Virus record (IMG/VR): IMGVR_UViG_3300031133_000383
Span: 186,635-250,634 of that record
Source: a virus
Taxonomy: Duplodnaviria > Heunggongvirae > Uroviricota > Caudoviricetes
DNA: 64,000 nt
Strand: one strand, 5' to 3'
In this document: positions 7,220 to 61,996 of the stretch, one piece after another
How positions within the stretch are numbered: the stretch's first letter is position 1
Layout: every line of letters starts with the position of its first letter
Program-made: the position numbers and the translations under genes
Notes under the pieces: model-generated
What the model was told of the DNA's origin: nothing
Databases searched by the model: none
The model's input: the letters and a program-made list of their open reading frames with translations, nothing else

Positions 7220-7369
7220 TGATTGTTTCTCCTGTTTATTTAATCGAATATCGTATTCTACATTAAATTTTAATCAAGTCAATTCTTTTTTTGCCTTTTT
7301 TATAAAATTAATTATTGTTTACTGTTATAAATTATGCTACTATCATAAATGATTAGTTGAGGTGATGAT

Positions 7370-8053
7370 ATGGCATTTAAGACATTTACCAATAAAGAAG
7401 AATTGATGAAAATTATTTATTCTGTTTCTGATACTGCTCTTGTTTCAGATCTGCAAGCAGATTTTAATCTAATTGAATCTTTCGGATTTAAAATAGATGA
7501 TAACAAGTATCCTATAAGGTGTTTTGGGAAAACGTATGTTCTTGTGGATGATGATTGTGTGATCTATATCTCATTCAGCAATCCATGTAAAAAAAATGGT
7601 ATTTGTTACATGATTCAAAAGCAATTTTTTACCAATAAGCATGATGTTTTACTGTCTCATCGATCCAACAGTCTTCCCGCCTGTATTACCTATCATTCCA
7701 ATGGTATGGTTTATGAAGAGCGTTACCGCTTGTATAATGAATTTTATCCTATTTTAATTTTAGAAAATGTTGAGTATTCTTATTTGGATAGTATAACAAC
7801 CATTAAAAATAAAAAAGAATACATATTTAAATCACAACAGTGGCATGCCAAAATTTTAAGAGTTAATCCCAAAACAAGAAAACCACTTCAAATTATTTAC
7901 TATCATCGAGAACAACCACAAAAAATGATTGATTTTGATAGTATTAAAAAAATTTATCCTGCGATTGTTCGTCTTTCTTATTTGGAAAGAGTTAATTTAA
8001 AAGTAAACCTTAGTACTTCTGAACAATCCTTGATTGAAATGCTGACCTTTTAA
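7370..8053 (+). CDS. Hypothetical protein, C-terminal-tail paralog family
   Basis: ATG after GAGGTGA. Promoter TGCTACTAT near 7336-7344. C-terminus is ...LSTSEQSLIEMLTF. Confidence 0.7.
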   Translation: MAFKTFTNKEELMKIIYSVSDTALVSDLQADFNLIESFGFKIDDNKYPIRCFGKTYVLVDDDCVIYISFSNPCKKNGICYMIQKQFFTNKHDVLLSHRSNSLPACITYHSNGMVYEERYRLYNEFYPILILENVEYSYLDSITTIKNKKEYIFKSQQWHAKILRVNPKTRKPLQIIYYHREQPQKMIDFDSIKKIYPAIVRLSYLERVNLKVNLSTSEQSLIEMLTF

Positions 8054-8118
8054 CAATTTTCATTGATTTTACAGTCTTGATTTGCTATAATAGATTAATT
8101 AAACAAAAGGAAATTATT

Positions 8119-9309
8119 ATGTCTTATCCAATTATTATGCATGGCTCAGAAAACTCTTTGGATGTTGACGCTTATGTCATTATTCCTGAACCTTTGTCAT
8201 TACAAGATGCTAAACGCCTTTGTGACTCTTACAAAGATATTAACGCAAACCTTTTGTCGGTAAAAAATGGCGTCGTTGATTGGTGTTATAAAGGAACAGT
8301 TGATGAATGTAACAATTCAATTCTGGCTACCTATGGCCTTCATAAGCAGAAATTTGATATTCCCGTAGAACATGCATTGCCACGTTCTTACGCATTGAAA
8401 ATGATTAGAACTGTTCGAGGCTTGTTGTCTTATCATTCTCGAACAGAAAAAAGAGAGGATGTTAAAAAAGCACTGCAAACTAACGATATGCTTATGAAAC
8501 TGGATGTACTTTCATCGATTGATTTGAGAAGTGTTGATGACTATCAAAAAACTTCAATTACAGAAACCTATAAGTTTTTTGCATTTCAGTTGGGGCAAAC
8601 AATGGCTTTGCTCAAAGACGGTGTTGAACTTTTTACAAAAAACCAAGTGGGTGAATATTACCCGGAATTGCAAGTCTATCTGCAACGTCAAGAAGGTGTC
8701 GCACCTGATGCCTTACAAGATTTTTGGGCGGGCTTTGCGTCCTATTTGAAAGAAACTGTTCGTAAAGTTGAAAAACATGATTTGTTTGCAACTGACTATC
8801 AAGGTGTTAGAGAAGTATTTGATTGCAAGAAAGAATTTGTTTTGCCACCAGTGGTCGTATTTGATATTGATGGTACATTACTTGATGAAAAACACCGAGC
8901 AGAACATAGAGAGAAGAAAGATTGGGATACTTACTTTGATTTGTGTCATCTGGATACGCCTATTCAACACATTGTCGATTTGACTAAAGAATATCGTAAA
9001 AAGGGATATGAAATTTGGTTGATGAGTGGGCGAGTAGATCGTATTATGGATAAAACTATTCAGTCTATGGTAACATGTGGTGCATGTTACGATCATATCA
9101 AATTACGAAGTCCTGAAAATAGAGTTCCTGATTTTGTAATTAAGCCTTCATGGATCAGTAAGTATATCGGTCTTGAGCGTGTCGAAGCTGTATACGATGA
9201 TACAGATCGAGTAATTGAAGGTTTTCGTAAAAAAGGATTAAATGTCATTGATGTTAAAGAACTCACACCTATACCTGTTCCAGTCAAGAAATCAAAAATG
9301 AAGCCTTGA
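8119..9309 (+). CDS. Two-domain protein: uncharacterised N-terminal domain plus C-terminal HAD-superfamily phosphatase (polynucleotide-kinase-phosphatase-like)
   Basis: ATG 8119 follows AAAAGGAA. The track start at 8077 would include the TTTGCTATAAT promoter. HAD motif I is VVVFDIDGTLLDE, motif II is WLMSGR and motif IV is VYDDTDRV. Confidence 0.6.
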   Translation: MSYPIIMHGSENSLDVDAYVIIPEPLSLQDAKRLCDSYKDINANLLSVKNGVVDWCYKGTVDECNNSILATYGLHKQKFDIPVEHALPRSYALKMIRTVRGLLSYHSRTEKREDVKKALQTNDMLMKLDVLSSIDLRSVDDYQKTSITETYKFFAFQLGQTMALLKDGVELFTKNQVGEYYPELQVYLQRQEGVAPDALQDFWAGFASYLKETVRKVEKHDLFATDYQGVREVFDCKKEFVLPPVVVFDIDGTLLDEKHRAEHREKKDWDTYFDLCHLDTPIQHIVDLTKEYRKKGYEIWLMSGRVDRIMDKTIQSMVTCGACYDHIKLRSPENRVPDFVIKPSWISKYIGLERVEAVYDDTDRVIEGFRKKGLNVIDVKELTPIPVPVKKSKMKP

Positions 9310-9417
9310 TATTAACCTATTGCGAATTGTAATGATTAACTAACTAATTCAATGTAGTTGGTTTTTTATTACAATTATGCAAAAATACTGATGTTTATTA
9401 TTCTTGGAGAATTTAAA

Positions 9418-60771: not shown

Positions 60772-60846
60772 ATAGGTGATTTTTTGTTATTTTAATGCTA
60801 TAATCTCCATCTAAACTAAATAGTACCCAACCCAAGAGGAAATGTT

Positions 60847-61356
60847 ATGTTTGAATCATTCAAAAAATTTTTTGGAAAGAAAAAAGAAAATAAGGCACAA
60901 TCTACCCGACAATCATCAGTCATCAGCCATAGTCGAAGAAATTCTCAAACTCGTCAGGATGAACTGAGTATTATTAATCCTCTGCATCCACTGAACCCGC
61001 TAAATCCAATTTATGATGATGTGACTCCATCTGAAAAGATTGTGCCGTCGCGTCATGTATCAGATGATGTGATTAATCGAGAATCGATTTCAGCCAAGCC
61101 TTCTGATTCGGCCTATAAATCACGTTTTGATAGTAATGTTGATGATGATGTTCGTCGCAATATAGGTCGAGTACATTCTCAGCCGCCTGTGTATGTAGAT
61201 ACGTATAAAGATACATCCAGTCATCATCGTTCTGAATCCAGTCATTCTAGTTCACGACATGACAGCCATCACTATGGCGGTTCTGATAGTGGTTCTAGCA
61301 GCAGTTATGATAGCGGATCTAGTAGTAGCGGAGACAGTGGTGGTGGTGGTGACTGA
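60847..61356 (+). CDS. Low-complexity Ser/His/Asp/Gly-rich protein (probably disordered)
   Basis: AGAGGAA RBS and TGCTATAAT promoter. C-terminus is SSHHRSESSHSSSRHDSHHYGGSDSGSSSSYDSGSSSSGDSGGGGD. Confidence 0.6.
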   Translation: MFESFKKFFGKKKENKAQSTRQSSVISHSRRNSQTRQDELSIINPLHPLNPLNPIYDDVTPSEKIVPSRHVSDDVINRESISAKPSDSAYKSRFDSNVDDDVRRNIGRVHSQPPVYVDTYKDTSSHHRSESSHSSSRHDSHHYGGSDSGSSSSYDSGSSSSGDSGGGGD

Positions 61357-61408
61357 TAGTCTCTTGTTTTAAGTGTGCTATTGTTAATTGCATATGGGAG
61401 CCTATTTA

Positions 61409-61861
61409 ATGGAAAATTCATATTACAGACAACGTTGTTTCAATTTTTCTACCATCGGAAAGATTGTTTATGATCCTGATAGAAAAAAAATGAAGTCCAA
61501 TACTGATAATTGGGCTGTTATAGAAATCGACAATGAAATTGCTACTTACTATCGTTTCTTATTTTTCAAGCGATATGGTATTCAATTAGACAAGCCTGCA
61601 TGGGATGCCCATATTTCGGTTTTGAAAAACTATACCAGTATGGACAAGGATATTGCATGGAAGTATCAAGATGGTTTGGAAGTTGAGGTTAATTATACCC
61701 ATGATCTTTACTGGAATGATAAGCATGTTTGGGTAAATGCTCATTGTGATGCTTTTTATGAAATACGAGATCACTATAAGATTCTGGTGTCAAAAGATCG
61801 CGGCCATATCACAATAGGAAAATTCAACGAAAGAGATAAATACAAGATCCCTTATCAGTAA
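61409..61861 (+). CDS. 2H-phosphoesterase superfamily protein (LigT/CPDase-like)
   Basis: ATG 61409 lies 8 nt after GGGAG. Two H-x-[ST]-x motifs, AHISVL and GHITIG, about 75 aa apart. Confidence 0.5.
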   Translation: MENSYYRQRCFNFSTIGKIVYDPDRKKMKSNTDNWAVIEIDNEIATYYRFLFFKRYGIQLDKPAWDAHISVLKNYTSMDKDIAWKYQDGLEVEVNYTHDLYWNDKHVWVNAHCDAFYEIRDHYKILVSKDRGHITIGKFNERDKYKIPYQ

Positions 61862-61996
61862 AACATTTCGCCATGAAGGGCGATGCTTTACTGTTTATAA
61901 TTGATTTAAAATGGTGAGGAAGCAATATTAAAGTGTTGCCATCTCGGGTTTTTTTTGCTATAATAGCGTCATTCAAAACACATTAGGAATTAAATC

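Follow-up and report, generated by a model that had tools for sequence, protein, structure and literature searches.

The window and its genome

The stretch of DNA analysed here, called the window throughout, is 64,000 nucleotides long (positions 186,635 to 250,634 of the IMG/VR virus record IMGVR_UViG_3300031133_000383, Caudoviricetes), and the elements under study are the promoters, many with an extended −10 element, that stand in front of its genes. The window has a base composition of about 30% GC and carries about 79 genes at a coding density of 88%, with an intergenic share of 11.8%. A 322,998-bp metagenome contig (ena:ERZ27247402:k141_253576) contains the entire window without a difference; of this contig, 81 kb (about 25%), the window and 17 kb of flanks, was inspected for genes. 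Most window proteins have no family match in NCBIfam/Pfam scans. The recognisable products are a NAD-dependent DNA ligase, a polynucleotide kinase/HAD phosphatase, a truncated threonyl-tRNA synthetase (ThrRS)-like protein, seryl- and tyrosyl-tRNA synthetases, an SPFH-domain protein and an S49 peptidase; there is also a cluster of three tRNAs (Table 1). A 778-aa protein shows 45% identity to proteins of the Xanthomonas jumbo phages XacN1 and Xoo-sp13. Among the annotated XacN1 genes are one for a gp23-type capsid protein and one for a late sigma factor; no RNA polymerase gene was seen in the 49 kb of the annotation that was inspected. No sigma factor or RNA polymerase gene was found in the 81 kb of the contig. 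With the XacN1 major capsid protein as query, the 120 matches listed are all XacN1-like (at least 65% identical) and none lies on this contig. At E ≤ 1, an Rfam search of the whole window returned the tRNAs, below-threshold matches to sX4 and YrlA overlapping the tRNA cluster and one chance snoRNA match, with no T-box (RF00230) and no known small RNA (sRNA) family.

The element is taken to be a giant uncultivated phage, represented by a contig of at least 323 kb and possibly of 604 kb, with the window as an accessory, non-structural stretch of its genome. Since an identical copy of the ThrRS-like protein is encoded on a contig of 604,313 bp, the genome could really be about double the length of the 323-kb contig. 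The short form of ThrRS (376–409 aa) makes up all 120 clusters among the matches listed, at 56–100% identity, and syntenic relatives lie on contigs of 33–520 kb. A blastn search with 7.6 kb of the window against 50,697 phage records gave no match and tblastn with the DNA ligase gave matches of at most 30% identity; thus no isolate phage is close to the window. Scans of IMG/VR for exact 31-mers and for ligase peptides returned nothing. The nearest cellular relatives of the phage serS are from Gammaproteobacteria (Thiotrichaceae, Lysobacteraceae, Cocleimonas, Acinetobacter and Moraxella; 47–55% identity, loci L009–L088), a weak hint to the host lineage, and the host is probably a gammaproteobacterium. 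The promoter consensus described below argues against Bacteroidota and other hosts whose promoters follow a different grammar.

Anatomy of the promoters

Motif discovery, which the sequence-only reading of this DNA had proposed, was carried out by expectation-maximisation (EM) on 59 upstream regions, seeded with TATAAT only. It returned a full sigma-70 promoter, with a site held by about 89% of the regions. The −35 element of the model consists of T−35 (0.76), T−34 (0.95) and G−33 (0.53); the T-rich spacer carries T−17 (0.82), T−15 (0.78) and G−14 (0.79) come next, and the −10 hexamer shows T−12 (0.95), A−11 (0.99), T−10 (0.79), A−8 (0.78) and T−7 (0.99). In the upstream flank, up to the end of the model at −43, A reaches 0.42–0.55 at −39 to −43 versus a background of 0.35. 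Anatomy was counted over the 43 best gene-proximal sites. TG is present at 37 (86%), the spacer is 17 bp at 30 and 16 bp at 13 with none of 18 bp, and the −10 hexamer reads TATAAT at 14 and TATTAT at 11. The sequence-only reading had found that a good −35 was often missing; TTG is, however, located at −35 with a 16/17-bp spacer in 31 of the 43. The consensus is TTG(a/c/t)nn, a 16/17-bp T-rich spacer with T−17, then T−15 G−14 n and T−12 A−11 t a/t a T−7. Most sites belong to the combined −35/TGn/−10 class and about a quarter are TGn/−10 only. The 12 sites without TTG have nothing in common upstream but T-richness; their lack of TTG would be compatible with −35-independent activity. The end of the −10 lies 20–44 nt from the ATG (median 27), so short 5′ leaders of about 13–37 nt with a GGAG-type ribosome-binding site are predicted.

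Near-identical boxes of the form T-rich, TGc and TATAAT had been listed at eleven positions by the sequence-only reading, and extended −10 boxes are present at all but one of them: 7335–7343 (TGCTACTAT, cited as 7336), 8083–8091 (TGCTATAAT, cited as 8086), 12264–12272 (TGCTATTAT, cited as 12264), the pair 16465–16473 (TGCTATAAA) and 16475–16483 (TGGTATAAT, together cited as 16466/16476), 18433–18441 and 19945–19953 (cited as 18433 and 19945), 27069–27077 (TGCTATAGT, cited as 27068), 56243–56251 (TGCTATACT, cited as 56243), 60796–60804 (cited as 60794) and 61956–61964, for which the cited 61964 is the end and not the start. The site cited as 44074 is another promoter type, with a TATGAT −10 (44077–44082), a TTGATT −35 and a 17-bp spacer; its TG is out of register and it is therefore not an extended −10. 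The set is larger than these eleven, at about 45–50 sites, some of them outside 7333–61972. Neither the preference for C after TG nor the uniformity of the boxes held up. The base after TG is A at 15, C at 9, G at 7 and T at 6 sites, and a TTTTGC-type box would require TGC, found at just 9 of the 37 TGn sites. The TTTTGCTATAAT motif described earlier is thus one flavour of a broader TTG-N19/20-TnTGnTAtaAT consensus.

Enrichment, specificity and conservation

TGNTATAAT occurs 15 times in the window; 13 copies are intergenic and 12 are placed 10–60 nt upstream of a start codon on the same strand. In 500 dinucleotide-preserving shuffles of the intergenic segments, the 13 intergenic copies compare with 1.55 ± 1.29. 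TGn followed by at least five of the six bases of TATAAT is found 38 times in intergenic DNA (9.4 ± 3.2 in shuffles) and TGCTATAAT six times (0.22 in shuffles). Of the −10-like hexamers upstream of genes, 33 of 87 have TG at −15/−14; the corresponding counts are 63 of 964 for coding DNA and 6 of 179 for the remaining intergenic DNA (upstream versus coding, odds ratio 8.7, p = 5e-15). A match of at least 4/6 to TTGACA at 16–17 bp is seen at 25 of 38 sites versus 13 of 64 coding controls; the mean best match is 4.13/6 versus 2.70/6, with positions 4–6 weak. The k-mers enriched upstream of genes are −10 words, TGn words and Shine–Dalgarno words only, and the known motifs scanned for, given below, show no enrichment. 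The earlier statement that the window shows no alternative phage-specific consensus is thus upheld. The generic promoter scan of the tool barely exceeds shuffles in AT-rich DNA, and the conclusions do not rest on it.

A two-block scoring model applied to both strands at a cut-off of 12 bits gives 51 matches in the window; 44 of these fall between genes and 37 have the correct orientation. The model was also applied to a held-out set of 78.5 kb, which consisted of the 17 kb of contig flanks and three relatives (protein identity 59–66%). Of 32 matches there, 28 fall in the 8.6% of the DNA that is intergenic and 22 are oriented within 70 nt of a start. Duplication explains just three or four promoters, those of the tandem paralogues at 36–39 kb.

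Orthologous promoters were compared at four positions in relatives whose proteins are 59–83% identical. In front of the 778-aa gene, four genomes have an unchanged TTGACTT and retain TAnnAT, with a spacer that cannot be aligned. The polynucleotide kinase gene has TTGAnn-17-TTTTTTTG(C/G)TA(T/C)AAT in common in three genomes; in a fourth the promoter is rebuilt behind a new terminator. For the divergent 227-aa gene TGnTAnnnT is kept in all four genomes, and the promoter of the thrS-like leader retains TTGAC(T/A) and exactly 17 bp to a degenerate −10 in five genomes (67–83% protein identity). The −35 and −10 are kept while the spacers diverge, the signature of selection on the −35, the −10 and the spacer length. 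This conservation is the strongest evidence for promoter function among the present results. Consensus, orientation, position, held-out recovery and conservation in relatives support the earlier assignment of the sites to the sigma-70 family. The observation is real and statistically solid, and the earlier interpretation is mostly right in kind and loose in detail.

Transcription units and terminators

The layout had been described as one gene, one promoter. With a cut-off of 11 bits and a distance of no more than 120 nt, 42 of the 79 genes were assigned a site of their own; weaker TG-less −35/−10 sites (34791, 44054 and 49615) stand before a few others. The remaining genes follow their neighbour by less than 25 nt in operons of two to five genes (for example, 41111–44057, 46263–49533 and 58255–59349), so the layout is one of short operons of 1–5 genes and not strictly of one promoter per gene. 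The sRNA-like units at 4383–4853 (minus strand) carry such promoters, as had been noted, and the tRNA cluster does likewise (28189–28217).

Hairpin terminators are also fewer than the "many genes" claimed. A first, lax scan was too noisy and was replaced by a stricter hairpin and T-run scan, which found about 15 distinct intergenic terminators for the 79 genes (−7 to −16 kcal/mol); several are two-way between convergent genes and one is a 5′ attenuator. The terminator scan of the tool gives 13, 9 and 9 per 20 kb versus 6.3, 7.4 and 5.9 in shuffles, a modest excess. Both the intrinsic terminators and the leader-peptide attenuator are consistent with transcription by a bacterial-type polymerase that is coupled to ribosomes.

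Table 1. Genes and predicted promoters and terminators of the window. Promoters are given as −35, spacer (bp), TGn and −10; bits are scores in the position weight matrix (PWM) used as scoring model; L005–L007 are loci of relatives.
Position	Strand	Feature	Score or remark
328..356	+	Promoter TTGAGA-17-TGA TATTAT, 27 nt before gene 384-1151	13.3 bits
1221..1246		Two-way intrinsic terminator, ends gene 384-1151 and minus-strand sRNA-like unit	11-bp stem, −10.8 kcal/mol
1354..1382	+	Promoter (TGn/−10 class) TGG TATAAT, gene 1404-2147	14.5 bits
4335..4363	-	Promoter TGA TATAAT, gene 3139-4308	16.6 bits
4388..4413	-	Terminator, sRNA-like unit 2	−12.1 kcal/mol
4574..4602	-	Promoter TTGACC-17-TGA TATTAT, sRNA-like unit 2 (~4567-4383)	14.3 bits
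4637..4664	-	Terminator, sRNA-like unit 1	−15.2 kcal/mol
4825..4853	-	Promoter TTTACT-17-TGA TACTAT, sRNA-like unit 1 (~4818-4630)	read from sequence
4883-7219	-	778-aa protein gene	phrog_33734 match
7255..7282	-	Promoter TTGACT-16-TAGAAT, 778-aa gene	TTGACT invariant in 3 relatives
7315..7343	+	Promoter TTGTTT-17-TGC TACTAT, gene 7370-8053	14.7 bits; TGnTAnnnT kept in L005–L007
8063..8091	+	Promoter TTGATT-17-TGC TATAAT, polynucleotide kinase/HAD phosphatase gene	17.6 bits; conserved in L006/L007
8119-9309		Polynucleotide kinase/HAD phosphatase gene
9338..9363	+	Terminator, 3′ of polynucleotide kinase/HAD phosphatase gene
9358..9386	+	Weak promoter-like site, gene 9418-10446	13.4 bits
11072..11102		Two-way terminator, convergent genes 10653-11090 / 11087-12175	−13.4 kcal/mol
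12244..12272	+	Promoter TTGCTG-17-TGC TATTAT, small gene 12307-12465	17.6 bits
13965..13992	-	Promoter TTGATT-16-TATAAT (no TG), gene 13171-13941	12.5 bits
14457..14484	-	Promoter TGG TATAAT, gene 14005-14433	13.9 bits
14488..14516	+	Promoter TTGATT-17-TGA TATATT, gene 14552-14986; divergent pair with 14457..14484	16.2 bits
16455..16483	+	Promoter TTGCTT-17-TGG TATAAT, NAD-dependent DNA ligase gene	17.2 bits
16513-18384		NAD-dependent DNA ligase gene
18391..18404		Short GC hairpin and T-run, 3′ of DNA ligase gene	scan: minus-strand hairpin; plus-strand T-run GCCACCTACGGGTGGTTTTCT read from sequence
18413..18441	+	Promoter TTGCTT-17-TGC TATAAT, gene 18469-19332	19.2 bits
19925..19953	+	Promoter (TGn/−10 class) TGC TATAAT, gene 19985-20551	16.6 bits
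22204-23364	-	Truncated threonyl-tRNA synthetase-like (thrS-like) gene
23414..23440	-	Terminator hairpin and T7 inside thrS-like 5′ leader (attenuator, not gene end)	−16.0 kcal/mol
23554..23582	-	Promoter TTGACT-17-TAAAAT, thrS-like leader	TTGAC(T/A)-17 kept in 4 relatives
24998..25027	-	Terminator, 3′ of gene 25011-26108
26138..26166	-	Promoter TTGCTC-17-TGG TATAAT, gene 25011-26108	20.7 bits
27009..27056	-	Two tandem promoters TTGATA / TTGTCA -17- TGA TAAAAT, gene 26207-26983	14.8, 11.8 bits
27050..27077	+	Promoter TTGACA-16-TGC TATAGT, gene 27101-27436	15.5 bits
27440..27468	+	Promoter TTGATT-17-TGA TATGAT, gene 27489-28100	15.9 bits
28189..28217	+	Promoter TTGATT-17-TGA TACTAT, 30 nt before tRNA cluster	12.2 bits
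28248-28514		tRNA-Pro/Lys/Ser cluster	3 tRNAs
29368..29395		Two-way terminator, convergent genes 28650-29369 / 29396-29839
29872..29899	-	Promoter TGA TATTAT, gene 29396-29839	14.9 bits
30027..30055	+	Promoter TGA TATTAT, gene 30082-30372	16.5 bits
30870..30898	-	Promoter TGA TATTAT, gene 30381-30845	14.3 bits
30916..30944	+	Promoter TGA TATTAT, gene 30972-31508	14.7 bits
31515..31543	+	Promoter TTGACA-17-TATAGT (no TG), SPFH-domain gene	12.5 bits
32486..32511	+	Terminator, 3′ of SPFH-domain gene	−13.2 kcal/mol
34791..34819	+	Promoter TTGACT-17-TATAAT (no TG), gene 34844-35257	11/12 match
35990..36017	+	Promoter TTGACA-16-TGG TATTAT, paralogue 1 of 4	15.9 bits
37326..37357	+	Terminator, 3′ of paralogue 1	−12.6 kcal/mol
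37386..37413	+	Promoter TTGACA-16-TGA TATTAT, paralogue 2, duplicated with its gene	18.4 bits
38278..38323	+	Terminator-like hairpin, 3′ of paralogue 2	lax scan
38345..38372	+	Promoter TTGACA-16-TGA TATTAT, paralogue 3	18.4 bits
39280..39307	+	Promoter TTGATA-16-TGG TATTAT, paralogue 4	14.9 bits
40215..40243	+	Promoter TTGACA-17-TGT TATATT, gene 40281-40436	12.2 bits
40451..40474		Terminator, 3′ of gene 40281-40436
41059..41087	+	Promoter TTGAAT-17-TGA GATAAT, head of operon 41111-44057	15.2 bits
44054..44082	+	Promoter TTGATT-17-TATGAT, serS	not extended −10
44106-45389		Seryl-tRNA synthetase gene (serS)
46197..46225	+	Promoter TTGATA-17-TGT TATCAT, head of operon 46263-49533	14.4 bits
49615..49643	+	Promoter TTGACA-17-TATATT (no TG), gene 49697-50215	11/12 match
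50546..50574	+	Promoter TTTACA-17-TGT TACAAT, S49 peptidase gene	13.1 bits
51519..51544	+	Terminator, 3′ of S49 peptidase gene	−12.3 kcal/mol
51565..51593	+	Promoter (TGn/−10 class) TGT TATAAT, gene 51615-53480	15.2 bits
54623..54650	-	Promoter TGA TATAAT, gene 53533-54597	15.1 bits
55141..55168	+	Promoter TGT TACAAT, gene 55192-55770	13.8 bits
55779..55806	+	Promoter TTGACT-16-TGA TATTAT, gene 55830-56219	15.8 bits
56223..56251	+	Promoter TTGACC-17-TGC TATACT, 164-nt tyrS leader	14.5 bits
56416-57675		Tyrosyl-tRNA synthetase gene (tyrS)
57661..57687		Two-way terminator, tyrS / gene 57687-58106	−15.4 kcal/mol
58189..58217	+	Promoter TTGACA-17-TGG TAGACT, head of operon 58255-59349	12.0 bits
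60555..60583	+	Promoter TTGATT-17-TGA TACAAT, 23 nt before 54-aa ORF 60607-60771 (called in source contig)	13.9 bits
60776..60804	+	Promoter TGC TATAAT, gene 60847-61356	16.4 bits
61936..61964	+	Promoter TTGCCA-17-TGC TATAAT, gene 61997-62902	21.2 bits, top score in window
62925..62948	+	Terminator, 3′ of gene 61997-62902	−12.4 kcal/mol
62992..63019	+	Promoter TTGAAA-16-TGT TATTGT, gene 63048-63263	11.7 bits
63260..63288	+	Promoter TTGATA-17-TATAAT, gene 63317-63532	12.0 bits

Comparison with known promoter systems

The early promoters of T4 consist of UP/−35/TGn/−10 (PMC2988021). They resemble the promoters of the window in combining −35, TGn and −10, in having host sigma-70 as reader (here as we infer) and in their density before many short units of accessory genes in an AT-rich genome. 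T4-type capsid and late-sigma genes are present in XacN1, the only isolate in which a homologue was detected. They differ in the −35, which is GTTTAC in T4 and TTG with weak positions here. Evidence for a UP element, which in T4 is A/T-rich and lies at −40 to −60, is weak in the window (A about 0.5 at −39 to −43), and no homologues of Alt, AsiA or MotA were seen in the inspected part of the contig. A single protein, 45% identical, is what links this phage to the T4-type phages. The T4 late (gp55) motif TATAAATA, which stands at −10 with no −35, is found 22 times in the window, with four copies intergenic and none oriented within 70 nt of a start. In phiKZ and AR9, phage-encoded polymerases read the promoters. 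The phiKZ early motif TATATTAC occurs four times with none oriented, and a scan with AAC-N6-T(A/T), looser than the AR9 late consensus (AACA-N6-TW), gave 9/504 with no enrichment.

The extended −10 is recognised by sigma region 3.0. The promoters of the window share with the E. coli extended −10 and the TRTGn −16 region of Gram-positive bacteria a TG at −15/−14 before TATAAT, the T−17 and tolerance of a poor −35. TG is, however, present in 86% of the promoters predicted here versus roughly 20% in E. coli, and −16 is A or T here, not the purine of TRTGn. The Pseudomonas jumbo phage PA5oct depends on the host polymerase and has 32 intergenic TTGAC/TATAATA promoters and 36 factor-independent terminators, with RNA-seq support (PMC7318152). 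It is alike as a jumbo phage without its own polymerase (none was seen here in 81 kb) and with TTGAC and TATAATA-type promoters; no extended −10 was reported there, and host and GC content differ. For XacN1, a distant link to the RaK2-like group has been published (PMC5852040).

Leaders of the thrS-like, tyrS and 778-aa genes

The thrS-like gene is preceded by a leader at 23365–23582 (minus strand), with relatives at about 1150–1500 in loci L092–L095. The promoter, TTGACT-17-TAAAAT at 23582–23554, is followed by an upstream ORF (23534–23460) that encodes MHIVKNTTTTTTTQIEAGLVRYCR and a stop, with seven consecutive Thr codons. GCTGGG (23486–23481) is a copy of the 3′ arm of the terminator and can pair, as antiterminator, with the 5′ arm CCCAGC; the alternative fold has −23.7 kcal/mol. 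The terminator and T7 lie at 23437–23417; the thrS-like gene comes next, its ATG preceded by the ribosome-binding site. The arrangement recurs, with different sequences, in four relatives (67–83% protein identity); their upstream ORFs begin MKLFAVNTTTTTTQ, MLNHNFITTTTTTTQ, MIFNFKNTTTTTVT and MFNFNVTTTTTTTCQ and contain 5–7 consecutive Thr codons and 6–8 Thr in each ORF, and the antiterminator segment co-varies with the terminator arm in each. By its predicted structure, the leader belongs to the classical leader-peptide attenuators known from the thr operon and pheST, here in front of a synthetase-like gene of a phage. As in the E. coli thrL and pheM leaders, a short ORF with a run of cognate codons, alternative hairpins and a T-run lie directly 5′ of the gene; unlike there, the gene is phage-encoded and its product an N-terminally truncated ThrRS-like protein. 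We know of no described leader-peptide attenuator on such a phage ThrRS-like gene, and a full-text literature search found no report of such a phage synthetase attenuator.

The 164-nt leader of tyrS (56252–56415) has an upstream ORF at 56285–56332 (MKATFHFQKSFTVRY and a stop) whose last sense codon is Tyr. Directly after it follows ACTTTCTCCAT, which pairs in the predicted fold with the ribosome-binding region ATGGAGAAA; a weak hairpin and T-run are located at about 56345–56372. A T-box was rejected, as there is no match to RF00230 at E ≤ 1 in the window. More speculatively, this leader may sense Tyr and switch the translation of tyrS. The 5′ leader of the 778-aa gene (7220–7254 minus; about 9965–10000 in L005–L007), GATGTTnnATTAAATnAAnnAGGAGAAA, is conserved in four genomes far above the promoter spacer, which hints at a regulatory or translational role.

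The sRNA-like module and other features

A module resembling an sRNA occurs in five minus-strand copies (1284–1308, 4456–4480, 4538–4562, 4709–4733 and 4789–4813) and, at one to three per locus, in relatives (L005 at 17547; L006 at 18754, 19992 and 20070; L007 at 16144, 16908 and 16986). Its 22-nt core AGGCTATGA-N4-GGTTCCTTC is exactly conserved in relatives with proteins only about 60% identical. The 5′ box AAGGCUAUGA-N4-GGUUCCUUCUA pairs with the 3′ box ACCUnnUCGnUUUCC; the flanking helix shows compensatory changes at four pairs and encloses the invariant GGUUCCUUCUA loop. This CU-rich loop could pair with GGAG-type ribosome-binding sites. The units carry their own promoters and terminators and have no Rfam match.

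The compact divergent control region 26984–27100 holds two tandem promoters on the minus strand, which arise from a 19-nt direct repeat, TGATAAAATATTGAAAAT; their −35 region and the TTGACA of the plus-strand promoter 27050–27077, its −35, overlap. Four tandem paralogues (36039–37322, 37440–38273, 38399–39232 and 39341–40198, within 35990–40198) were duplicated together with promoter and 5′ leader (TTGACA-16-TGATATTATAAT...TTAATACAA..ATG), with terminators after the first two. About 14 consecutive genes of 190–290 aa occupy 32563–35918 and 40496–49533. Blastp at 1e-5 among these genes at 32–50 kb found no pairwise similarity and no large paralogue family. Their products end in the motif hydrophobic-x-L-x-(E/D)-M-I-N-(Y/I), for example ...RDMINY, ...CEMINI, ...SEMINY, ...VEMINI and ...LNMMYI; the genes could be paralogues that have diverged very far, or the products could have a C-terminal signal in common.

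Discussion

Sigma-70 recognises the −10 hexamer through its region 2, TG through region 3.0 and TTG through region 4.2, and TG makes up for weak −35 boxes. We consider it probable that the sites are housekeeping sigma-70-family (group 1) promoters, most likely read by the unmodified RNA polymerase–sigma-70 holoenzyme of the host, as at T4 early promoters; for a phage, the host enzyme is the obvious candidate. Each of the three regions of host sigma-70 would contact its element in the phage sites, and the sites would drive about 45–50 short transcription units (1–5 genes each), the tRNA cluster and the sRNA-like genes. Both the sigma identity and the timing of the promoters in infection are what we infer from the DNA. 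Several points weigh against this reading. About 25% of the contig was inspected, and the phage may encode an RpoD-like sigma or a polymerase modifier. The nearest cellular relatives of serS, from Gammaproteobacteria, are only 50–54% identical, which makes them a weak pointer to the host. The frequency of TG, 86% versus roughly 20% in E. coli promoters, could mean a class tuned beyond plain host sigma-70. The training of the scoring model on the same window is an objection that the held-out test answers.

Host core polymerase could instead work with a phage-encoded RpoD-like sigma of near-housekeeping specificity. TG (37/43) and T−17 (0.82) are unusually uniform, and about 240 kb of the contig lies outside the inspected part. 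Group 2 jumbo phages encode sigma factors, and those of some polymerase-less jumbo phages are close to cellular RpoD (PMC7824862). However, there is no sigma-family match among the roughly 60 window proteins scanned or the Pfam labels of the 17 kb of flanks, the consensus is indistinguishable from the canonical sigma-70 consensus, and host sigma has to serve at least the genes transcribed first after injection; we regard this explanation as unlikely. A phage factor bound near −30 at the roughly 12 of 43 sites without TTG, with sigma-70 on TGn and −10, would make these twelve middle promoters like those of T4 MotA/AsiA. About half of the T4 middle promoters have TGn, and TGn/−10 promoters are immune to AsiA (PMC2988021). 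Yet the MotA box, which is (a/t)3TGCTT(t/c)A centred at −30 in place of the −35 and was scanned for as TGCTTnA, is not enriched (58 in the window, 6 intergenic, 2 oriented upstream) and the twelve sites have no common motif at −25 to −40, only T-richness. Promoters of the TGn/−10 type function without an activator, and such a class of middle promoters seems quite unlikely here. The TTGCTT −35 of five promoters was considered as a MotA-like box and rejected; it is displaced by 2 bp from the T4 register and fits a TTGnnn −35.

The sites would be a cell's own housekeeping promoters if the DNA came from a plasmid or chromosome of an uncultivated low-GC bacterium. There are no capsid, portal or terminase genes in the 81 kb inspected, the 778-aa family is found in bacterial genomes too, and aminoacyl-tRNA synthetase and tRNA genes are cellular hallmarks. 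This is nevertheless very unlikely, given that nearly all ORFs lack a Pfam or NCBIfam match, that PHROG matches include phrog_33734, a polynucleotide kinase family and phrog_24943, that ThrRS is reduced to its catalytic core with no ribosomal or core metabolic genes alongside, and that related contigs of 108–604 kb have the same content, with a homologue in the jumbo phages XacN1 and Xoo-sp13. The idea that the boxes are a functionless by-product of AT-rich intergenic composition, to which the GC content and the weak excess in the generic scan (137–150 promoter-like sites per 20 kb versus 113–117 in shuffles) would lend themselves, is effectively refuted by the 8-fold to 27-fold excess of the specific motifs over shuffles, the strict orientation and spacing to start codons, the linkage of TG to the −10 only upstream of genes, and the −35/−10 conserved in relatives with divergent spacers.

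The near-universal TGn and T−17 might be an adaptation, in which an AsiA-like factor of the phage disables sigma-70 region 4 and −35-dependent host promoters while the several hundred TGn/−10-competent promoters of the phage stay active, because TGn/−10 promoters are immune to AsiA in T4 (PMC2988021). We put this forward tentatively, as a rather unlikely idea. If true, a huge phage would keep one promoter grammar throughout infection, with no class switching.

The promoters are ordinary members of a well-known class in a familiar layout and involve no new principle of transcription. The Thr attenuator and the multi-copy sRNA-like module are testable regulatory devices and more valuable than the promoter map. 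The map, with about 50 promoters, about 15 terminators and the operon boundaries, is usable for an uncultivated 0.3–0.6 Mb phage lineage that has no isolate, and it suggests that these phages depend, for their accessory genes, on a polymerase of bacterial type and housekeeping specificity.

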